Shown here: positions 31,581-60,243 of the stretch, in pieces
How positions within the stretch are numbered: position 1 is the first letter of the stretch
How the letters are laid out: each line of letters begins with the position of its first letter
NCBI GenBank assembly: GCA_965242675.1
Contig: CBDESW010000039.1
Span: 20,122-84,121, forward strand
DNA: 64,000 nt
Origin: Dehalococcoidia bacterium
Lineage (GTDB): Bacteria; Chloroflexota; Dehalococcoidia; Lucifugimonadales; UBA1123
Reading direction: 5' to 3'
Position numbers and translations under genes: made by a program
The notes under the pieces: model-generated
Told to the model about the DNA's origin: nothing
Seen by the model: only the letters and a program-made list of their open reading frames with translations
The model's database searches: none

Positions 31581-31665
31581 GGGGAAGTGTCGGAATTGGC
31601 AGACGAGCATGACTTAGGATCATGTGCCTTAGGGCGTCCGGGTTCGAATCCCGGCTTCCCCACCA
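31581..31665 (+). tRNA. tRNA-Leu (anticodon TAG), class II with a long variable arm, CCA encoded
   Basis: Manual fold: acceptor ggggaag/cttcccc, D stem tcg/cga, anticodon stem catga/tcatg with loop cTTAGga, variable arm tgccttagggcgt, T arm ccggg-ttcgaat-cccgg, then A-CCA. Confidence 0.9.
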
Positions 31666-50342: not shown

Positions 50343-52631
50343 CTATCCCCCGTTCGCCGCCCCCGGCGTCGGCGCGCTCACCGTTCGGAATTCCCCCGTT
50401 GCGTCGGGGACGCGGGCGTATGATGTCCCCCCGTCCGAGTCGCCGTCTTCCCAGTCCACCGAATCCACCGGCGCGCCGTCCGCCGTCCATACGCCCAGCT
50501 CTTCGTCGGAGCCTAGGGCGAAGCCGGGCCAGGCGTCTTTGTCCAGCTCGATTCGCAGATATTCCCCCGGCGCGATAGCCATGTCGGGCGGGAAGGGGAC
50601 GCGCTTGGACGCGTCGGCGAGGTCGTCCGCGAATACGAAATCGGCTAGGGCGATATGCGAATCCGTGTAGTTATGCAGCTCGAACCAGTCCAGCGGGTCG
50701 CCTTTGGCGGCGATTTCGTTGATTGCCAAGCCGATGGCGGGCGCGTCGGCGTCGCCAGTCGTCGCGGACGGCGGCGGCGATGATGACGACGTCTGAGCGG
50801 GCGGCGGCGCGACGTAGCCCACGGCGCCGATGAATTGGGCGGAAATCGGCGCGCCCGGTTCGGCGGACGCTTCCGAGAGGGTGAGCGCGCCCGTCGATAC
50901 TGGCAGGAACTCGCTCGGCTCCGCCGCGCCGGGGGGGATGCGCCAGACGCCGCCGCCGATTTCGTCCGCGCCGAAGGCGAGCGTCTCGCCGTCCGCCAGG
51001 CGCGGCGCGGGGAATGTGAGCGTCAAGCCCTGAATCGCGCCGTCCGCCGCGTATCCCAAAACGGTGAGCGAGACGGCGTTGTCGATTCTGAACGCCTCGC
51101 GCTCATCCTCGCCCGCCTCGCCGGCGATTGCGCCGATGCCGTCCGCGGGCAGCTCCGCGCCGTTGAAGGCGAAGCGGGTTATTTCGCCTTCCGCGAACGG
51201 GTTGGGGCTGTCGCTCGTCCCCCAGACGGCGCTGAAGCTCAGCTCCATCTCGCCGGGCGCCAGCTCGCCCCAGGCGGCGACCGCCTGCCCGCCGCCGTCG
51301 GGCCACTCCGGCGGCTGGGGGCGCAAGTCGGCTAGAATCGCCGCGCGCCGTCCGCGTATGAACTCGCGGACGCGCTCCGCGCCCTTCTCGGCGGCGGCGC
51401 GGTTTTTCGGCAGGGCGCGGCTTTGGACAATCGCCGCCATTTCGTCCGCCAGCGCGATGAGCGCGTCTTCGTCCCAGACCGCATCGAGAAGCGCGTTCAG
51501 GCGCGCGACGTAGGCGGCGCGCGATTGCGGGTCGTTGTACAGCCGGTTGGCGAGCGCCCCGTTGGCGAGAACGGACAGCGGCGGCTCCGTCACGTCGTCA
51601 AATGGGTTGGGGTCTTTCTCGTCGTCCGAAAACACTTGGTCGACGCCCCAGGGGATGAAAATGAACGCGCCATCCGGCTCGCGATAAAACCAGTAGTTGT
51701 TGCGGTTGCCGGCGTATCCGTCCCAGTGGGCGATGATTACTTCCAGCGCCCAGAAAGTGAGGAAGCGGTCTAGGTCGACGGCGTCTTTCACGGCGTCCAA
51801 GCCGGCGGCGGACGGGTCGGCGAGAGCGGCGGCCAGGGCGTCTATGTCCGACCAGTCGTCCGCGCCCGAATTGGTTTTCTTCTCGAAAGTGCCGCGATAA
51901 GTCGGGTTGAAATCGCTCACCGTGCCTTCGTAGAGATTGCCGTCCGGGTCTGCGAATACGCGCGCCAGCATGGAGTGTTCGATGTCCTCGACATTGGCGT
52001 ACACGCCCAGATTTTCGCCGTTGACGGATACTGTGGCGAAGTTGCATCGCGGCGCGGGATAGTCGGCGGCGGCGAAGGCGGCGAACGACATGCAAGTCGC
52101 GATGAGCGAATCGTCCTGAACGCCGTTGTTGAGCGTCATGCGCTCCAAAACGCCGCCGAGCGCCTTGCCGTCCGCGTACTTGTCGAAGCGTATCTTGAGC
52201 GACGGCTTGACGTCGCTCTGCGAGCCGACGAACCCTTTTTTGCGGACGCCGACGCCGGAATGGGTTTCGCCGTCGACGGTCACGTCGGCTTGGAACCAGG
52301 TGTAGATGTCCGCGAACGGCTGCGAGAGGCGGTTCTCGGCAATCTCGGCGAAGACGTCCTCCAGAGTGCGGCTTTGGCTGCGGAGCGCGTCCCAATCCTC
52401 CGGCGCGATTCTTATGGATATGTCCAGAACCCGGTCTAGGGCGTAGTAGTCGCCGGCGGGGGCGGTTGAAGCCGGCGGCGGCGGCGTATTCGGCGCGGCG
52501 GCGTCGGGGCGTCCGCAGGCGGCGGACATGGCGGCGAGCGCGAGGGCGGCGAGCGCCGTCCAAAAAATCGGGCGCGCGTTTAGGGGACGGGCGATGATGA
52601 TGGGCTCCTTATTCGGCGTCGGGGGCGTCAA
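50343..52631 (-). CDS. CotH kinase-family protein with a C-terminal lamin-tail-like domain, probable lipoprotein
   Basis: ..KPSLKIRFDKY..LNNG.QDDS..FWALEVIIAHWDGYAGNRNNYWFY.. (CotH). C-terminal INEIAAKGDPLDWFELHN..GEYL..LG..DE..SY (LTD-like). LAAMSAAC lipobox. TTG start as listed. Confidence 0.75.
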   Translation of the reverse strand: MTPPTPNKEPIIIARPLNARPIFWTALAALALAAMSAACGRPDAAAPNTPPPPASTAPAGDYYALDRVLDISIRIAPEDWDALRSQSRTLEDVFAEIAENRLSQPFADIYTWFQADVTVDGETHSGVGVRKKGFVGSQSDVKPSLKIRFDKYADGKALGGVLERMTLNNGVQDDSLIATCMSFAAFAAADYPAPRCNFATVSVNGENLGVYANVEDIEHSMLARVFADPDGNLYEGTVSDFNPTYRGTFEKKTNSGADDWSDIDALAAALADPSAAGLDAVKDAVDLDRFLTFWALEVIIAHWDGYAGNRNNYWFYREPDGAFIFIPWGVDQVFSDDEKDPNPFDDVTEPPLSVLANGALANRLYNDPQSRAAYVARLNALLDAVWDEDALIALADEMAAIVQSRALPKNRAAAEKGAERVREFIRGRRAAILADLRPQPPEWPDGGGQAVAAWGELAPGEMELSFSAVWGTSDSPNPFAEGEITRFAFNGAELPADGIGAIAGEAGEDEREAFRIDNAVSLTVLGYAADGAIQGLTLTFPAPRLADGETLAFGADEIGGGVWRIPPGAAEPSEFLPVSTGALTLSEASAEPGAPISAQFIGAVGYVAPPPAQTSSSSPPPSATTGDADAPAIGLAINEIAAKGDPLDWFELHNYTDSHIALADFVFADDLADASKRVPFPPDMAIAPGEYLRIELDKDAWPGFALGSDEELGVWTADGAPVDSVDWEDGDSDGGTSYARVPDATGEFRTVSAPTPGAANGG

Positions 52632-52766: not shown

Positions 52767-54060
52767 GTTGCAATGGGGCCAACACCTTTCAGCGTTGAAT
52801 ACAGATTACGCCGCTACCATCAAAGGCGCGATGCTCCAACTGCAATGGGGCCAACGCCTTTCAGCGTTGGATACTCATCTTGGCGGGGGTAATCGGGTCG
52901 CAGATAACGACGCTTCAATGGGGCCAACGCCTTTCAGCGTTGGATTCAATTTCATGGAACAAGAGGTGTACCAGATTCGCTACGGACTGCAATGGGGCCA
53001 ACGCCTTTCAGCGTTGGATACTTCCAGTGCACTCAGTGCGACCTGCCGATGGGCGACGGGTGGTTGCAATGGGGCCAACGCTTTTCAGCGTTGGATACCC
53101 TGGGGCTGGCGACGGTCGGGACGGTCATGGAAGGGCTGCAATGGGGCCAACGCCTTTCAGCGTTGGATACACATTCGCAAGAGAGTCGACCGCGCTGTCT
53201 CCTCGGGTCTGCAATGGGGCCAACTCCTTTCAGCGTTGGATACTCAGCATGTACAAAATCCGACAGGTCCGCGGATTCACGCTGCAATGGGGCCAACGCC
53301 TTTCAGCGTTGGATACGTGGAGGGCGAGCTGGAATTCTGGCGCACGAACAGCGAGCTGCAATGGGGCCAACGCCTTTCAGCGTTGGATACGCCCTGGACT
53401 TGGACGGCGAAGCGCATAGCATCGTCCGCCATTCAGGTGCTGCAATGGGGCCAACGCCTTTCAGCGTTGGATACGAGAGCGCAGCTGCACATCGCGGGGA
53501 TAACCGAAAAGCTGCAATGGGGCCAACGCCTTTCAGCGTTGGATACGCCACTACGAGGCGCAATTCCGCGTCGGGTCGACTGCCGCTGCAATGGGGCCAA
53601 CGCCTTTCAGCGTTGGATACTCCTCGGGGATGGACAGGGCCCAAGCCGAATCCGCCGTGCTGCAATGGGGCCAACGCCTTTCAGCGTTGGATACTTTCAG
53701 CGTCAATCTCGAAGGCGGGCGGTGGGCGACGCTGCAATGGGGCCAACGCCTTTCAGCGTTGGATACGCATCGAGCGGGTGTGGAGCCGATTCGCCCGCCG
53801 ATACATGCTGCAATGGGGCCAACGCCTTTCAGCGTTGGATACTCCACTTCGTCCGCGAACCCCACCGCGGCGGTGGTCGCTGCAATGGGGCCAACGCCTT
53901 TCAGCGTTGGATACTTATGGAAGGCGACGCGCGGCAGCTGGCAGGGGCGGTGCTGCAATGGGGCCAACGCCTTTCAGCGTTGGATACGGGACGCGATCAG
54001 ACCCATCATTGGCGCGGTCGCGGCGCTGCAATGGGGCCAACGCCTTTCAGCGTTGGATAC
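52767..54060 (-). CRISPR. CRISPR array: 18 x 36-nt repeats, 17 spacers (36-48 nt)
   Basis: + strand consensus: GCTGCAATGGGGCCAACGCCTTTCAGCGTTGGATAC. Transcribed sense: GTATCCAACGCTGAAAGGCGTTGGCCCCATTGCAGC, with a 7-bp stem CCAACGC/GCGTTGG and 3' ATTGCAGC. Repeats 8-18 are identical. Repeats 1, 3, 5 and 7 at the left end carry internal substitutions, and repeats 1-5 and 7 vary at their first 1-3 bases. Confidence 0.97.
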
Positions 54061-54329
54061 AGTGTTTTCGCCGCGCTTTTCGCTCATTATAGCGCTTTGG
54101 GGCGGACGAATTTCGCCATTTGACGCTCGGCGGCTGGTTTTCGGACCGAATCAAGGCATTTTTTCGCCGCCCGGAGACCGTTTTCGCCCTCTTTTTTGCG
54201 AACGCGAACGCTTGGGATGTTCACCGCCGGAGCGTTCGCATCGCTGTTTTGGCGATTGCGTGGGTTTCCCGCGCGCTTGGCGCGGCGGGGGATATTCGGC
54301 TGTGAAATCTGCGTCCGGCGGCTGTCGCA
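54061..54329 (-). promoter_or_regulatory. Putative CRISPR leader, with a TATAAT box at 54091-54086 about 25 nt upstream of the first repeat
   Basis: Lies between the last cas gene and the non-degenerate end of the array. The minus strand reads ..aaagcgcTATAATgagcgaaaagcgcggcgaaaacact|GTATCC.. Several A/T runs. No convincing -35. Confidence 0.45.
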
Positions 54330-55607
54330 TCACAGGGTTAGCGTCATCGGGGGCCAGCGGGGGATTTCGGATTCCTCGACGTCCAGAACCTCCAGCGCGG
54401 CTTGCCGGAAATTTTCGAACGTTCTTTGGGACACCGGTATCAAGCCGTGCGCCAGCAACGATTCGTTTCGCGCGGTCAGATGCTTCTTGAGCAGGTCGTA
54501 TTTCGCGCCCTGTTCGCGCAGGCTTTCGTATTCGCTGAACTGCAGGGCGGCGTAGAGGTTTTGGACGCCGAGCAGGAAGATTCCGTTTTCGTCCGGGTCG
54601 CCGAACATGGCTTTGGCGTCCGCGCGGCGGTTGGCGGGGAAGTCGTCCGGGCTTATCTTGCCCAGCTCCGCGCCGAAGGCGGCGCGCGCCAGTTGCTGGC
54701 CTCTCAGCTCCACCGCTCGGTACAGCCTGCCGGTGGCGTCGTCGTAGCGCGACTGCGCGGCGCGGCGCTCGGCGTTCGCCAGCAACTCCAGCAACGTCTC
54801 GCGCCCCGGCGTCTTGGGCGTCTTGACGTTCGCGTTTATTTGGTCGGCGGCTTTGAGCCATCCGCCGGACAACTCCGCCAGGCTTTCGAACGCGGCGCGG
54901 TCGAGCGTGTACTCCAGCACGGTGCGGGCGCGACCGAATGTGTTGACCGCGTCCCGAAAACTGAACGAGTCCGCTTTGCCGAGCGCTTCGGCTAGGCGCG
55001 CGAATCCCCTTATCTTGTTCTTATGCTCCGGGTCGCACTTGTTCGCCGCTTCGTCCAGAATGTCGGCGGCGGCGTCCGCGTGATAGCCGGACAGCAGGTC
55101 GTTGGCGCGCTCCAAGTCGCGGGCGGCGTACTGGTTCCACGGGTTTTGAGACGGTATCACCGCTTCCGTTCCGTCCAAGACGACCCCAAGCCCGCCCTTG
55201 TCTCGCCGCTCGCCGCCCACGTAGGTGAACGCGCTGAACCGCTCCACGCCCGCCAAGACGAGCGCCGCCGACATGGTTTTCGTGCCGCCGGTGTAGTCGA
55301 CATAGACCGATTCCGCCGCCATCCCGACGCTGCCGAGCCACTCGCGCATCGCGTCCCGCATCTCGCGGTAGCAGTCGCCGATGCTCTCGTAGTCGGTCAA
55401 CGTCAGCGTCTGGCACTGCGGGATGTAGTCCAGGGCGGGCAGAATCTCGTTCTCGATCAGCGGTTTCGTGCCTTCCGACGCCGCGAACAGGATGAAGTCC
55501 GGCTTCCGCCGCGCTATGGCTTTGATGACGGGCGCGGGCGTTCCCCCGACGCTAATCACCAGCCCTCTTTTCAGTCCGTCGGTCATGAGTATTTTTCCTT
55601 TTCCCAA
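54330..55607 (-). CDS. CARF-HEPN ancillary effector (Cas02710/Csm6-Csx1-like)
   Basis: N-terminal ..LVISVGGTPAPV..YVDYTGGTKTMSAAL.. (CARF). C-terminal ..LTARNESLLAHG.. (R-x6-H HEPN motif). The alternative start ATG 55586 overlaps the csm4 stop (ATGA). Confidence 0.75.
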   Translation of the reverse strand: MGKGKILMTDGLKRGLVISVGGTPAPVIKAIARRKPDFILFAASEGTKPLIENEILPALDYIPQCQTLTLTDYESIGDCYREMRDAMREWLGSVGMAAESVYVDYTGGTKTMSAALVLAGVERFSAFTYVGGERRDKGGLGVVLDGTEAVIPSQNPWNQYAARDLERANDLLSGYHADAAADILDEAANKCDPEHKNKIRGFARLAEALGKADSFSFRDAVNTFGRARTVLEYTLDRAAFESLAELSGGWLKAADQINANVKTPKTPGRETLLELLANAERRAAQSRYDDATGRLYRAVELRGQQLARAAFGAELGKISPDDFPANRRADAKAMFGDPDENGIFLLGVQNLYAALQFSEYESLREQGAKYDLLKKHLTARNESLLAHGLIPVSQRTFENFRQAALEVLDVEESEIPRWPPMTLTL

Positions 55608-56542
55608 ATCATCGGCAGGGCGAGCGCGAAGGCGGGTTGGAGCGGGCGGACGTCCATTTCGGCGAGGCGGCGGCGGTCGCCCTCGCTCAGCAACCGTTCG
55701 GGTTCGATGGCGGTTCCGTAGAACGGTCGCGGAGCGCCGCCGACGTGGAAGCAGGCGCCGGGTTCGAGCATCGCCTGCGGACGCTTGAAAATCGCAGCCG
55801 ATTGGAACTCCGGCGCCATCTTGCCGTACTTGACGAACGTGCGCCAGCAGCCTTCGGTGGGGTCGGAAGGCGCGGGCTGGTAGGTCGAGAGCGAAACGAA
55901 GGCGTCCGCGCCGGGGACGTCGTCCAAATCCGGGCGCGGCTTCGGGTCGCCGTCCAAATCGAACGCGCCGTATCCGCTGGTCGCCCGCGCGCCGTATCCG
56001 GTTCGCCCCAGCGTCTCGAGCGCCTCAAGCAAGACCGCCAAGCCGTCGGAGGCGGCGCGGGCGTAAACCGTCAGCCGCCCGTCCGCGTCGTCCAGCTCCG
56101 AGTAGCGGACTTCGAACAAGCCGTCCGATTCGGCGGCGGAGTCGGTGAGGCGCGAGATCGAGTTTCGCATCCGAACGCCGTCGCGCGTGGACGCTATCGG
56201 CGCGTCGCCGTTCTTGGGCAACGGCGGCTTGCGTCCGCTCTGCGTCTCGCGGAAGGCGCCGGCGGAGAGCAGGCGCGTCTTCTTCACCGCCTTGCGCGCG
56301 CTCGGCTGCCAGTCCATGAGCGGCAGAATGGCGGGCGCGGGCAGGGCGTCGCCGGGGAAGGCGTCCGAGAGGACGAACGGCGGCTCGCCGGCGCGCCACG
56401 GGTCGAGGAAGTCGCGCCGCAGGGCGTCCGCGCCGCGCGAGCGCGCCCAAGTCGCCGCCAGCGCGCCGAGCAGCGAATCCGCCCGCCACGCCGTGACCCA
56501 CGCCCCGACCGGCTTCAGCGCTATTGCGACCAGATTGTCCAC
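55583..56542 (-). CDS. csm4: Type III RAMP, Csm4 (Cas5-group) like
   Basis: ..RADSLLGALAATW..PPFVLSDAFP..LGRTGYGARATSGYGAF.. (G-rich loop). GTG start. Confidence 0.7.
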   Translation of the reverse strand: MDNLVAIALKPVGAWVTAWRADSLLGALAATWARSRGADALRRDFLDPWRAGEPPFVLSDAFPGDALPAPAILPLMDWQPSARKAVKKTRLLSAGAFRETQSGRKPPLPKNGDAPIASTRDGVRMRNSISRLTDSAAESDGLFEVRYSELDDADGRLTVYARAASDGLAVLLEALETLGRTGYGARATSGYGAFDLDGDPKPRPDLDDVPGADAFVSLSTYQPAPSDPTEGCWRTFVKYGKMAPEFQSAAIFKRPQAMLEPGACFHVGGAPRPFYGTAIEPERLLSEGDRRRLAEMDVRPLQPAFALALPMIWEKEKYS

Positions 56543-57199
56543 GTTTCGCCATCCATCTTGAAGTCATGGAAGCTGATTTCGCCCGACCCGCGGCTGATTC
56601 CACCGCCGAGTCCGGTGCTTTGGACGAGCAGCAACCCGTCCGCGACGACCGCCTGCAGCGCCTCGCCGCCCTCGCGGGACGCGCCGCTCATGTCGTCGTA
56701 CTTGAACTTGGCGTCGTATTCGAACACCTGGAGCGCGATTTTCATGCGGAACTCCGCGCCCGCCGCCACGCGCTCATTCGAGCGCGGATGCTGTGCGGAG
56801 CCTGCGCCGGTCGATGACGTTCTCCGTCTTGTTTTCTATGCGGAAACCGCCCGCCATGCTGCCGTCGCGGACGATTATGCGGGACGGGCCGAGCTCGCTC
56901 CGCGTATTCATGTGAGCGCCGAACACGCGGCATATGGGGCAGTCCGCGCCGGCGCATCCGCACGGTCTGTCGCCCTCGCTTTCCCCATTGCGCCCGAACT
57001 TTCCTAGCTTCTTTTCGAGCTCGCCGCGCATCTTGCCCTTCAGCGAGGAGCCGGGGATGTACGGTTCGCCGTTCGCGGGGTTTTTGATTACGGGGTTGTC
57101 CGCGCCGCCGATGGCGAGCTCGTCTTGGGAGCCGCCGATGTGCAAGCCGCTCTCGCAGCGCGCGGTGAAGGTTATGTCGTGGATGCCCGTTCTTATCAT
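56521..57199 (-). CDS. csm3: Type III Cas7 RAMP Csm3, reading frame broken once (~56800-56806)
   Basis: ORF 56774..57199: ..GLHIGGSQDELAIGGADNPVIKNPANGEPYIPGSSLKGKMRGELE..CPICRVFG..ENVIDRR. It continues in ORF 56521..56769 as GSAQHPRSNERVAAGAEF..GLGGGISRGSGEISF after a 1-nt shift. Confidence 0.75.
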
Positions 57200-57217: not shown

Positions 57218-57811
57218 CTATCCTCTGTCTCTCATGTAAGCCGCGCCGAAGCCGATGAGCGCCTCGAAGTGCGGCAGGAAGCCGCGCAGGAAGGCGTCGC
57301 CGGGGTCGTCCGACGACGCGACTCGCCGGACGTTGTCATCGATGAAGGTTTGGAACTCCGCCGGTATCTTGCCGCCGCTTTCGGCGTATTGGGCGTGATA
57401 CCGAAGGCCGTCGAACTCCGCCGCCACGCTCTGCCAGCTTTCGCCCTCCACTTGCATCCGCCGCTCGATTTCGCGGCAGTGGTTGAAGAACCGCCGCGCC
57501 TGCCCGGTGGTGAGGTTGGGATAGGCGTCCCTAGCCAGCGCCCGCGCCAAGCCGTCCATGTTCTCTTTGGACACGAAATCGGTTCGCAGGCAGAGTTTGC
57601 CGCCGTCGTCCGGCGCGAAATAGGCGTCCGGGAGTTTCGGCATGTTCACGGGTCGGCGCTCCCGCCCGCCGCCGCGATTGCCGCCGCCGCGATTGCCGCC
57701 GCGATTGCCCCGATTGGGCGGTCTAGCCATGTCGTCTCTCCTTTCCGGTTCTTCCGACTCTTCCGGCGGCACGTCGATCCCCGCCCTGCGAAAGGCGTCT
57801 CTCATCGCCAT
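57218..57811 (-). CDS. csm2: Type III small subunit Csm2 (Cas11) with an N-terminal RGG-rich extension
   Basis: ..NLTTGQARRFFNHCREIE..LRYHAQYAE..FLPHFEALIGF.. (Csm2-like), preceded by PPNRGNRGGNRGGGNRGGGRERR. Strong RBS GGAGAGGG. Confidence 0.65.
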   Translation of the reverse strand: MAMRDAFRRAGIDVPPEESEEPERRDDMARPPNRGNRGGNRGGGNRGGGRERRPVNMPKLPDAYFAPDDGGKLCLRTDFVSKENMDGLARALARDAYPNLTTGQARRFFNHCREIERRMQVEGESWQSVAAEFDGLRYHAQYAESGGKIPAEFQTFIDDNVRRVASSDDPGDAFLRGFLPHFEALIGFGAAYMRDRG

Positions 57812-57853: not shown

Positions 57854-59383
57854 TTATCCGCGCGTCGCCAGAAGCGCGTATCGGAGGCTTGCGGATATTT
57901 CGTTCGCGCGAATCGCGTCGCGCTCCAAAGCGAGCGCCGCTTCGGTTGACCAGCCGCGGAACTCGGCGGTTCGGCGGTTTCGGGGGACATTGCGATTCGT
58001 CTGATACGTCCATCGCGCCGCCCGCGTCGGCTCGTCGCTTTCGGCGAGGCGCAGAAGGCGGTGCAGCAGCGAGCGCGACATTCCGTCCAGTTCGCGCGTC
58101 CACCGCGCCAGTTTCTTGCCCTCGCCAATCACCAAGCCGTGATACTCCCAACTCCAGATGGATTCCAGCGCCGCGCAGCCGTTCTTGCCATCCCGCGCCT
58201 TCGCCTTCGTCTCCAGCGCGTCCGCCCGCTCCGCGGCGTGGCGAACGGGCAGGCGGTACGGGAACAGCGCGATTCCGGCGCTCAGGGTCAGCGGGGCGCT
58301 GATGGTCGGGGGCGCGTATTTGCGCGCCGGACCGTCCTCGAACGCGCTCGCCAGTTCCCCCGCGAAATCAAGCGTCTTGTCCCAGGGACCTATCAGAAGC
58401 AGGTCGTCGCCGCCCGCGTAGATGGTGTAGATGGAGCGCCAAGATTCGGCGAGCATGTCCTGAACCGTCTCGGCGAAGAACGCATGCAGGTCGCGGCTGA
58501 ACGCCTTGAGCGTCGCGAGGGACGGGTCGGCGGCGGCGATTTCGCCGACTCGGACGCCCATGTCGTCCACATCCGCCTTGAGGGCGGCTAGGCGCTTGTC
58601 GCCGGCGGCTTGCTGGGCGATTTCCTCGAAAGTCAGCGGTTCGCGTCCATTGTCGGAGCGCGGTATCCATCGCCCGGCGCGGAAGGCGTCGGGCGTCCCC
58701 GCGTCCGCCGCGCCGAAAGTCGCGCCCAGCGCCTCGATGCGGAATCCGCCGCCGCGCGCGCCGCCGCCGGATGGTTCGCCGCCGGGTTCCAGGACGCGCA
58801 TCCACTCCAAGCCCGTCAGCCGCTCGCCCAGGTCGCGCGCCTTTAGGCAGGCGGCGCAGTGCAACTCGCCGCTATCCGCGTCGCCGTCCGCGTCTTGGAC
58901 GCGCCGCTGACCGGGGGCTTGTCCGCAGACTTCGCATGGGTCTCCGAGCGGGGGCAGGCTCATGCGCTCGGCGCTCCACGCGCCGCCGTTTTGGAGCGAG
59001 GAGAGCGCGGGGCGCCGCTTGCGCCTCTCCAGCCGCGCGCGGGCGTCTTCCGGCGTCTCGCCCCAGACCAGCGACGCCTGAACGCCGCCGCCCGTCTCGT
59101 CCCAGACCATGCGCTGCAGGTCGGCGTTCAGCTCATCGACGGCGCGCCTGTCCGCGTCGCCGTCCGCCCGCGCCAGAAAGCCGCCGCCGCCTCGGATGAG
59201 AACGTCGTCCTCCGAAATCGCCAGCCGCTCTTTCGCTTTGGCGAGCGCGGCGCACTCGAACAGTTCAAGCAGAAAAGACCTCGCGCGCAACCGCTTCGCC
59301 TGCGCGCCGCCGGCGCTTTTGACGCCCAGCACATAATCCTGTATGCCCGAAAAGTCGCCCGCGAGATAGATGGGTTCGCTCAT
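57854..59383 (-). CDS. cas10: Cas10 (Csm1-like) lacking the N-terminal HD domain; cyclase GGDD intact
   Basis: Starts MSEPIYLAGDFSGIQDYVLGVKSAGGAQAKRLRARSFLLE (start of Palm1 in other Cas10s). CEVCG..CAAC zinc finger and IYAGGDDLLLIG. Only 509 aa. The start overlaps the upstream stop (ATGA). Confidence 0.8.
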   Translation of the reverse strand: MSEPIYLAGDFSGIQDYVLGVKSAGGAQAKRLRARSFLLELFECAALAKAKERLAISEDDVLIRGGGGFLARADGDADRRAVDELNADLQRMVWDETGGGVQASLVWGETPEDARARLERRKRRPALSSLQNGGAWSAERMSLPPLGDPCEVCGQAPGQRRVQDADGDADSGELHCAACLKARDLGERLTGLEWMRVLEPGGEPSGGGARGGGFRIEALGATFGAADAGTPDAFRAGRWIPRSDNGREPLTFEEIAQQAAGDKRLAALKADVDDMGVRVGEIAAADPSLATLKAFSRDLHAFFAETVQDMLAESWRSIYTIYAGGDDLLLIGPWDKTLDFAGELASAFEDGPARKYAPPTISAPLTLSAGIALFPYRLPVRHAAERADALETKAKARDGKNGCAALESIWSWEYHGLVIGEGKKLARWTRELDGMSRSLLHRLLRLAESDEPTRAARWTYQTNRNVPRNRRTAEFRGWSTEAALALERDAIRANEISASLRYALLATRG

Positions 59384-60243
59384 GCTTCTTCCTTTTCCCG
59401 GATTCCGCAGGCTGACTGCGGCGAAACTTCTTTTTGCCGGTCGTCGTCCGTCTGAGGCGTGAACAAGCCAAGCCCGTAGTGGCAGGCGAAGCCGAGCGCG
59501 ACGGGTCCGGCGACGGGTTTATCGAATTCCACGCTGAAATTGAACGCGCCGCCGCCGTTGGAGCCTTTGCGCCGGTATCGGAAGAAGTCGAACGGTCGGA
59601 ATCCCGCGAAATCGCCCGCCGGCGCGATGGGGGCGATGGGCTTGCGGACGTCGGCGAACTCGGCGCTTATCAGCCGCGCGTCGGGGAATCGGCGGTTGGC
59701 TTCGCGCGTTATCTGCTCTTTCGCGCCGTCCACCAATTGGCGGCGTCCGTCGGCGTCTTTCGGACCGCGCAACTTGGCGTGGCGCGGGGGGACGTAAGGG
59801 GACGCCGACCGCCAGCGCGCGGCGCGTCCGAACGGCGGGGATTCCGCCGCGAAATCCTCCGCCCGCCCGCTCGCCAGATGCGTCAGCCGCGCCGGTTCGC
59901 GCCCGCGTCCGGGGTTCAGCTCGCGCAGGGATTCCACCGCCGCCAGATCGTCCGCCTCGAAGCCGAACGGCGTCCAGACGGTCAGACGGTCAATATCGCC
60001 GTCGCCGTCCTCGTCGGTGGGCAGATAGAAGGCGTGTCTGTGTCCGGTCAACGGCTTGCCGTCGGCGTCTTTGCCGGAGAGGGTCGGGGAAGGCGCGCCG
60101 CCGTTCATGCGTCCGAAGCGCGCCATCGCCGCCGTCCGCGCCAGGTCGCCCCACCGCGCCGCGTCCGCCAACGCGGGCGGGACGCCGCTCCGCAAAGCGA
60201 ACCGAACCGCCGTCGGCTTGGCGCGGTCGTTGGGAACGTCCAT
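59380..60243 (-). CDS. RAMP-like protein resembling the C-terminal (Cas6-like) portion of type I-G/I-U Csb2 (GSU0054 family)
   Basis: ..LSGKDADGKPLTGHRHAFYLPTDEDGDGDIDRLTVWTP..S.SPYVPPRH..FFRYRRK..FSVEF..GPVALGFACHYGLGLF.. From memory this is the Csb2 pattern. The N-terminal GRYHA..EWPPSP half of full-length Csb2 is absent. Confidence 0.5.
   Translation of the reverse strand: MDVPNDRAKPTAVRFALRSGVPPALADAARWGDLARTAAMARFGRMNGGAPSPTLSGKDADGKPLTGHRHAFYLPTDEDGDGDIDRLTVWTPFGFEADDLAAVESLRELNPGRGREPARLTHLASGRAEDFAAESPPFGRAARWRSASPYVPPRHAKLRGPKDADGRRQLVDGAKEQITREANRRFPDARLISAEFADVRKPIAPIAPAGDFAGFRPFDFFRYRRKGSNGGGAFNFSVEFDKPVAGPVALGFACHYGLGLFTPQTDDDRQKEVSPQSACGIREKEEA

Follow-up and report, generated by a model that had tools for sequence, protein, structure and literature searches.

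Can a Cas10 protein of 509 amino acids (aa), with nothing in it that resembles an HD nuclease domain, be a genuine Cas10, and if so, what kind of immunity would it provide? The question is raised by an open reading frame (ORF) at 57854..59383 on the minus strand of a 64,000-nucleotide (nt) stretch of contig CBDESW010000039.1 from a Dehalococcoidia bacterium; we refer to this whole stretch as the window. Based on profile alignments and a structure model, we conclude that the ORF is a genuine Cas10 of the Csm1 type that starts at Palm1, has no HD domain, and keeps the cyclase motif. We also think it highly probable that the protein would be the large subunit of a compact type III-A-like effector in which the loss of HD was inherited, and which would act through RNA-guided cyclic oligoadenylate (cOA) signalling to a HEPN ribonuclease (RNase), with no Cas10 single-stranded DNase (ssDNase) involved.

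The Cas10 ORF and its domains

A first-pass annotation of the window had described a 509-aa ORF at these coordinates; the coordinates and length are right, and the strand is here corrected to minus. The protein begins with MSEPIYLAGDFSGIQDYV, and the minus-strand bases that precede its start codon are ...GGGAAAAGGAAGAAGC, followed by ATG. A Shine-Dalgarno-like element, AAAGGAAG, is located 4 nt 5' of the ATG, in agreement with the good ribosome binding site claimed earlier, and the sequence ATGA at minus-strand 59383-59380 makes the start of cas10 overlap the stop of a 287-aa upstream gene (59380..60243), as had also been noted. There is an in-frame stop 46 codons 5' of the ATG and none of those codons is ATG, GTG, or TTG, so we agree that there is no space for a missed N-terminus.

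TIGR02578, the NCBIfam model for Cas10/Csm1, matches the protein with an E-value of 2.9e-71 (241.2 bits against a cutoff of 170), and query residues 7-508 align with positions 232-753 of the 753 in the profile. Positions 1-231, the region of the HD domain, are unmatched, and no HD family in Pfam or NCBIfam matches the window Cas10. The Pfam matches in the protein are PF22335 (Palm2, E 3.6e-29) and PF18211 (Csm1_B, domain B, E 1.5e-06). Among solved structures, the best sequence match by phmmer is T. onnurineus Csm1 (E 3e-26), in which query residue 6 falls on chain residue 235 and query residues 242-480 fall on chain residues 493-744.

Alignment to Cas10 structures and an AlphaFold model had been proposed as checks, and they return the Csm1 fold with Palm1, D2, Palm2, and D4 all present. 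The AlphaFold2 model, built from a 50-sequence alignment, has a predicted local distance difference test score (pLDDT) of 89.4 and a predicted template modelling score (pTM) of 0.89. In the model, Palm1 is a beta-alpha-beta-beta-alpha-beta unit, the zinc region is less ordered, and D4 is a helical bundle (aa 412-506) with pLDDT >95. When the model was compared with the PDB using Foldseek, all 50 of the 50 matches listed were Csm1 chains, the best being 9ash_A (E 6.3e-24). The template modelling score is ~0.7 when normalised to the query (best 0.71) and ~0.5 when normalised to the ~750-aa targets, a difference that fits the loss of the HD domain alone. The domains are arranged as follows, with approximate limits taken from the model and the alignments:

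59383-59018, minus strand: Palm1, aa 1-122
59017-58634, minus strand: zinc-finger domain (D2), aa 123-250, with the Cys cluster at 58847-58936
58633-58151, minus strand: Palm2, aa 251-411, with GGDD at 58403-58414
58150-57857, minus strand: helical D4 (Cas11-like, C-terminal), aa 412-509, where the profile alignment runs to position 753 of 753

The first-pass annotation had called IYAGGDDLLLIG and the four-Cys cluster intact, and both are found, GGDD at aa 324-327 and the cysteines at C150/C153/C176/C179. In the 50-sequence family alignment, G324, D326, D327, and the four cysteines are invariant and G325 is at least 90% conserved. The Palm1 motif DxSGIQ (D10, S12, G13, I14, and Q15), the GGG-F loop, and K269-A-D271-x-D273 are also invariant. 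The alignment thus gives no sign of the non-canonical palm residues that would have spoken against the earlier description: GGDD is canonical and D271/D273/G324/D326/D327 do not vary, which suggests catalytic competence. The four-Cys cluster, which is predicted to bind zinc, is placed between the Palm domains. D2 of the window protein also has a Gly-rich insertion, EPGGEPSGGGARGGGF, at aa ~200-215 that is not in the other family members shown, and model confidence dips there (pLDDT ~63).

We looked for an HD domain in the ORF, in the upstream gene, and in the window as a whole, and found it in none of them. The queries for the whole 64 kb were the HD N-termini of nine HD-bearing relatives, used as single sequences in tblastn (best E 0.067) and as a profile in hmmsearch against all stop-to-stop segments (best E 0.15). 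The upstream gene encodes no HD protein; its match is to the C-terminal half of Csb2. Given this, together with the unmatched profile positions, the earlier view that the protein begins at Palm1 without HD is borne out. We rejected a fused or split HD gene on the identity of the upstream gene, the stop at 46 codons, and the null search of the window. We also rejected mCpol, a single stand-alone Palm protein, since PF18182 scores 15.3 bits against a cutoff of 26.4 and the window protein has the full four-domain Cas10 body.

A compact HD-less clade

A search of 5.8 billion proteins gave at least 119 full-length 90% clusters among the 120 listed, with a median length of 495 aa, a range of 473-541 aa, and nearly all at ~100% query coverage; 89 of the 119 full-length clusters listed are shorter than 500 aa. 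Nearly all of the 50 aligned members start 4-6 residues ahead of YLAGDFSGIQ. In a scan with one genome per species, relatives of the window Cas10 were present in 199 genomes, with members in the Dehalococcoidia, Latescibacterota, Binatia, Acidobacteriota, Gemmatimonadota, Planctomycetota, Spirochaetia, Opitutales, and Rhodothermales, as well as in the cultured Pyrinomonas methylaliphatogenes K22.

For the N-terminal boundary, we extended the match in each relative to the maximal ORF. In relatives down to ~27-29% identity the start is the Palm1 motif, and ten loci at 25-29% identity have N-terminal extensions of 243-321 aa. An LLHD(I/V/A)GK motif is found in nine of these ten, which encode proteins of ~780-825 aa; in the tenth, L077, the printed 70 aa stop short of the position of the motif. 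One of the HD-bearing proteins, L065 (825 aa), spans the whole Csm1 profile (2-753). Some GC-rich relatives, for instance L050 and L069 (extensions of 233 aa) and L032 (158 aa), have Arg-rich over-extended ORFs with no visible HD motif, and we left them out of the HD-bearing count.

When the family profile was run against representatives at 50% identity, 2140 proteins matched at E <= 1e-30. Among the best 150 of these 2140, 66 are 470-600 aa long, and the full-length ones align from their first residues; 58 are at least 700 aa, most of them from E ~1e-71 down, with profile position ~6 at residue ~250. The start boundary and the size distribution together indicate that the HD-less proteins form a populous clade directly beside canonical Csm1. 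On these comparisons, a large clade has stably inherited the absence of HD. The normal size in this clade, ~500 aa, is about that of the canonical ~800-aa Csm1 minus its ~250-aa HD domain.

The operon

The cas10 gene is part of a minus-strand operon that ends in a CRISPR array. We observed the following features:

59380..60243, minus strand: Csb2 C-terminal (Cas6) half, 287 aa (TIGR02165)
57854..59383, minus strand: cas10 (Csm1-type), 509 aa (TIGR02578)
57218..57811, minus strand: csm2 (Cas11 small subunit), 197 aa (PF03750 E 2.8e-08, TIGR01870 E 1.9e-09)
56521..57199, minus strand: csm3 (Cas7 backbone and RNase), split into 141 aa and 82 aa (TIGR02582 on both pieces)
55583..56542, minus strand: csm4 (Cas5-family partner of Cas10), 319 aa (TIGR01903 E 2e-20)
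54330..55607, minus strand: CARF-HEPN effector, 425 aa (TIGR02710 E 1.1e-58; PF09670, "Csm6 HEPN domain", E 2.4e-24)
54061..54329, minus strand: presumed leader, from the effector gene to the first repeat, by position only
52767..54060, minus strand: CRISPR array, 18 repeats and 17 spacers

The cas10-csm2-csm3-csm4 core is thus present in order by NCBIfam, with csm3 frameshifted, and the arrangement [Csb2-like]-Cas10-Csm2-Csm3-Csm4-[CARF protein] is repeated in ~70 fetched loci. No ORF of the operon matched csm5 in Pfam or NCBIfam, a search limited to the operon ORFs. The csm4 gene overlaps the CARF-HEPN gene by 25 nt, so there is no space for csm5 in the operon. We did not find csm5 in the relatives L001, L005, and L031 either, nor in the HD-bearing sister loci L065 and L067, in which csm4 is directly followed by cas1 or a CARF gene. 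Given that these HD-bearing loci also have no csm5, the four-gene core marks a lineage wider than the HD-less clade, and a four-subunit Csm core seems to be a trait of that lineage. The III-A2 variant, which has no identifiable Cas11 and often has NucC (Makarova et al. 2025, PMC12669027), does not fit, since Csm2/Cas11 is present and the effector is CARF-HEPN. The N-terminal ~55 aa of Csm2/Cas11 are an RGG-rich low-complexity extension, NRGNRGGNRGGGNRGGGRERR, which is longer in the closest relative, L078; in L001 this extension has a CxxC...CxxC pattern (a possible zinc ribbon), and in L031 it is rich in Gln, Ser, and His.

In the window, csm3 is broken into two ORFs, one of 141 aa that is closed by a stop and one of 82 aa in the +1 frame. 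The cause is a 2-nt deletion (AGAG to AG) between window positions 56804 and 56803, in the conserved IDRxxGxA..PRSNERV segment. In L078, which has 92.6% nucleotide identity over 5.7 kb and the same synteny, including trpB and an acetyltransferase, the gene reads cgg cgc AGA GGC tcc (DRRRGSAQHPRSNERV) in one frame, and the nucleotide alignment has a 2-nt gap in the window at this point. In five relatives csm3 is a single uninterrupted ORF of ~215-225 aa, and in the relatives with checked hit coordinates the two csm3 match segments are in one frame. Either csm3 is truly a pseudogene here or the deletion arose in assembly. In the second case the whole locus would appear intact; as assembled, the window copy may be non-functional.

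The effector gene encodes an RNxxxxAHG HEPN motif that is invariant among 13 homologues (R380, N381, and H387). By single-sequence phmmer the effector had no match in the PDB. A profile of the 13 homologues matches T. thermophilus Csm6 (TtCsm6; TTHB152, PDB 5fsh) over most of the protein (E 6.8e-12). This is the closest solved relative of the effector, with CARF and HEPN domains in both, and the similarity is at the profile level only. TtCsm6 is an RNase activated by cyclic tetra-adenylate (cA4). Of the known type III effectors, 84% are activated by cA4 (Hoikkala et al. 2024, PMC11229360). Based on the likeness to TtCsm6 and on this proportion, cA4 is the most likely signal of the window Cas10.

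A putative Csb2-derived Cas6 and the CRISPR array

No canonical Cas6 family matches in the operon; in its place there is a homologue of the Cas6-like C-terminal part of Csb2. The upstream gene matches TIGR02165 (Csb2, E 2.4e-17) over positions 249-491 of 492, and it aligns with the C-terminal halves of the full-length Csb2 proteins of relatives, with which it has the motifs GHRHAFYLPTDEDGDG and GFACHYGLGLF in common. The nuclease activity of Csb2 is in its C-terminal Cas6 domain (Shangguan et al. 2022, bioRxiv 10.1101/2022.08.08.503147 / PMC9638904), and we presume that the half-length protein would be the pre-crRNA endonuclease of the module (crRNA, CRISPR RNA).

The 18 repeats of the array are 36 nt long and the 17 spacers are 36-48 nt; one spacer is 48 nt and the rest are 36-41 nt. 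On the minus strand the repeat is GTATCCAACGCTGAAAGGCGTTGGCCCCATTGCAGC, which can be divided into GTATCC-AACGC-TGAAAG-GCGTT-GG-CCCC-ATTGCAGC, with a 7-bp stem, a 4-nt linker, and the 8-nt handle ATTGCAGC. This predicted geometry matches the published processing by Csb2, which cuts a 36-nt repeat 4 nt 3' of a 7-bp stem to leave an 8-nt handle (Shangguan et al. 2022). None of the 11 cas-proximal repeats has a mismatch; among the 7 distal ones, most have 1-3. The arrays of relatives are downstream of cas10 and co-directional with it, with repeats of like design that end in ATTGAAGC. A 762-aa ORF (50343-52631, minus strand) adjoins the trailer of the window array.

Association with type I-G loci

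In relatives L001 (Dehalococcoidia) and L005 (Latescibacterota), the module is located inside a type I-G locus, between Csb1/Csb2/Cas3g/Cas3-extension and a Cas4g/Cas1g fusion, so that the gene order is Csb1-Csb2-Cas3g-Cas3ext-[Csb2']-Cas10-Csm2-4-CARF-Cas4g/Cas1g. In L031 (Pyrinomonas), Cas3g, Cas8g2, Csb1, and full-length Csb2 are directly upstream of the module. The Csb2 beside cas10 is a second paralogue: L001 and L031 each have a Csb2 gene in the I-G operon and another beside cas10 (L001:6489-7952, L031:7132-7998). The copy beside cas10 is full-length in ~15 loci; in the window, L078, L009, L031, and others, what is left of it is the Cas6 half. Of 67 HD-less loci, 33 have a Cas3g-like gene as a neighbor, compared with 0 of 10 HD-bearing loci (Fisher p = 0.004). 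The window module is solo, with neither cas1, cas2, or cas4 nor I-G genes in the 64 kb.

In the nested loci, the I-G arrays are probably shared with the module. It is plausible that, across the clade, interference at the DNA level and adaptation are delegated to a co-resident I-G system. Tentatively, and at somewhat less than even confidence, we propose that these loci represent a new I-G-coupled, minimal variant of the III-A-like type: a coherent clade with HD-less Cas10, Csm2, Csm3, and Csm4, no Csm5, and a captured Csb2 paralogue, typically inside I-G loci whose arrays and adaptation genes it would share. Such a variant would add an RNA-sensing cA4 alarm to a type I system that cuts DNA, and Cas10 would have lost HD as an evolutionary result of the partnership.

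Proposed mechanism and alternative explanations

We propose that the Csb2-derived Cas6-like protein would cut the I-G-style repeats to leave crRNAs with an 8-nt 5' handle. Each crRNA would be held by Csm4-Cas10 at the handle, with Csm3 as the backbone and Csm2 as the minor filament, and with no Csm5 cap encoded. A complementary transcript would then activate the Palm pocket of Cas10 to make cOA, most likely cA4, which would turn on the co-encoded TtCsm6-like CARF-HEPN RNase, and cleavage of the target RNA by Csm3 would time and end the signal. Cas10 ssDNase would have no part in this cycle. In the I-G-nested relatives (about half), Cas3g would provide DNA destruction and Cas4g/Cas1g spacer acquisition. 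The first-pass annotation had immunity rest on cOA signalling and RNA cleavage by Csm3. Signalling in place of a Cas10 DNase agrees with the HD-less Cas10 and the co-encoded TtCsm6-like effector; the Csm3 part is in doubt for the window copy, where csm3 is frameshifted as assembled.

Several points weigh against this reading. Csm3 binds the crRNA as the backbone and also cuts the target RNA, so the window copy cannot assemble an effector if the frameshift is real. A III-A system that lacks Csm5 is unusual, and its assembly with no cap is a prediction. The catalytic His of the half-length Csb2 is suggested by alignment, the ring size of the signal is deduced from the distant similarity of the effector to TtCsm6, and the function of the clade is read from sequence and structure prediction. 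The 28-nt cores of two leader-proximal spacers had no exact match in viral contigs. In the 64-kb window, no I-G gene (Cas3g, Cas8g, Csb1, full-length Csb2, or Cas4g/Cas1g) had a tblastn match at E <= 1e-5, and the counts of I-G adjacency in relatives are a lower bound, since they are from tblastn matches on many short contigs with uneven flanks.

One alternative is that the module is a decaying remnant, an inactivated orphan that gives no immunity and in which Cas10 has stayed intact only because decay set in recently. The csm3 deletion, seen against the read-through gene of a syntenic relative of such high identity, would fit this, as would the lack of cas1, cas2, cas4, and I-G genes in the window, the degenerate distal repeats, and the two spacers without viral matches. 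All other genes of the operon, however, are full-length with family-invariant residues, and the 11 repeats nearest the cas genes have no mismatch. The 2-nt indel could stem from faulty assembly or consensus calling, or represent a minority variant, and it is common for a type III module to be an orphan that draws on adaptation genes in trans. We lean against decay and still regard it as a serious possibility. We give somewhat more credence, still short of an even chance, to the explanation that the HD nuclease is supplied in trans, the module being an add-on to type I-G in which Cas3g brings the HD nuclease and crRNAs are shared, so that the loss from Cas10 is compensated. The nested loci L001 and L005, the I-G genes directly upstream in L031, the excess of Cas3g-like neighbors in HD-less loci, and the I-G-type repeats all argue for it. 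It is not applicable to the window, which has no I-G genes, and co-location is no proof of crRNA sharing; moreover, it complements the signalling explanation for the clade and does not compete with it.

The other two explanations carry much less weight. It is very improbable that this Cas10 makes a signal other than cOA, such as SAM-AMP (from S-adenosylmethionine), or is purely structural, as is the case for certain type III systems that are HD-less or cyclase-dead. The co-encoded sensors are CARF proteins (TIGR02710 here, TIGR02619 in other members) rather than CorA accompanied by SAM-AMP lyases. The residues of the Palm motifs are the canonical ones and do not vary, and the best matches by both structure and sequence are cOA-making Csm1 proteins. 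An annotation or assembly artefact, in which the HD domain of a longer true Cas10 was lost through an incorrect start codon, a frameshift, or a break in the contig, has in our opinion almost no chance of being correct. It came into consideration only because canonical Csm1 is ~800 aa, and we found no evidence for it. Apart from the upstream stop with no start codon between, the gene 5' of cas10, which encodes a Cas6-like Csb2 half, is read in a different frame, and L078 and L031 have an identical 4-nt overlap. Over 100 independent homologues start 4-6 residues ahead of the same motif, and no frame of the window has HD-like sequence. We continue to favor an inherited HD loss in a cOA-signalling effector.

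Relation to known systems and significance

An HD-less Cas10 as such is already known and common. In a survey of 1113 loci from complete genomes, HD was present in 39% of Cas10s (65% of III-A, 3% of III-D) and the cyclase in 92% (PMC11229360). HD is therefore missing from 61% of the surveyed loci, and it is typical of Csm1 but not required for Cas10 (PMC11229360). HD-less complexes have been characterised in V. metoecus (Cmr, PMC8682760) and T. thermophilus (Cmr, PMC8376896), and III-H and III-I are Cas10 derivatives that are short of other domains and are cyclase-dead (PMC12669027). The earlier remark that this would be among the smallest Cas10s overstated its rarity, given the HD-less majority in the survey and a populous clade in which ~500 aa is normal. 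From our reading of the literature, and not from a census of lengths, an active Cas10 may not get much smaller than the members of this clade.

Canonical III-A Csm1 proteins (T. onnurineus, S. thermophilus, L. lactis, E. italicus, and S. epidermidis; e.g., PDB 6kc0, 6ifn, 9ash, 9g9e) have the same Palm1/D2/Palm2(GGDD)/D4 order and Csm2-4 partners. The window Cas10 differs from them in having no N-terminal HD ssDNase of ~230-270 aa, with ~20% identity to the solved structures, and its operon differs in having no csm5 and a Csb2-derived protein in place of Cas6. The Cmr complexes of V. metoecus and T. thermophilus are like the window Cas10 in that they have no HD, keep the cyclase, and are read out through cOA and an ancillary nuclease. 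However, they are III-B systems of the Cmr2 lineage with six Cmr subunits, the V. metoecus complex signalling to NucC, whereas the window has a Csm1-lineage protein, a four-subunit core, and CARF-HEPN. With type I-G, the window has in common the Cas6 half of Csb2 and the 36-nt repeat with its 7-bp stem, 4-nt linker, and 8-nt handle, and related modules are found within complete I-G loci; the window effector, in contrast, is type III and not Cascade, and Cas3g, Csb1, Cas8g, and Cas4g/Cas1g are absent. A precedent for type III with a Csb2-type Cas6 is the III-B system of Haliangium ochraceum, in which csb2 is used as Cas6 (bioRxiv 10.1101/2023.06.23.546230), although that Cmr1-6 complex signals to SAVED-CHAT and the window has a compact Csm-like module. 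We found no description in our literature search of a Csb2-associated, I-G-nested HD-less module without Csm5, though it may be catalogued in classification data files.

Since HD-less, cyclase-active Cas10s are the majority and signalling-only immunity is established, the absence of HD is in itself of little weight. Of modest value is that the clade contains fully conserved and apparently active Cas10s as short as ~475-510 aa. Most clade members are shorter than 500 aa, so filters at 500 aa discard real systems; the 500-aa "functional" length filter of a major type III survey would drop about three quarters of the clade. If active, the four-gene core of ~1,270 aa (with csm3 at its repaired length of ~224 aa), together with a cA4-type RNase and a small Cas6, would be attractive as a minimal type III chassis for RNA-detection tools. 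The tight linkage to I-G, with its Csb2 paralogue, I-G repeats, and nesting between interference and adaptation genes, offers a natural system for studying crRNA sharing and the division of labor between types I and III.

Surroundings of the operon

The operon is flanked by trpB on the opposite strand. Scans with Rfam and for promoters and terminators yielded nothing further on the locus, and the only Rfam match above the gathering threshold in the 64-kb window is one tRNA gene at 31581-31662 on the plus strand.

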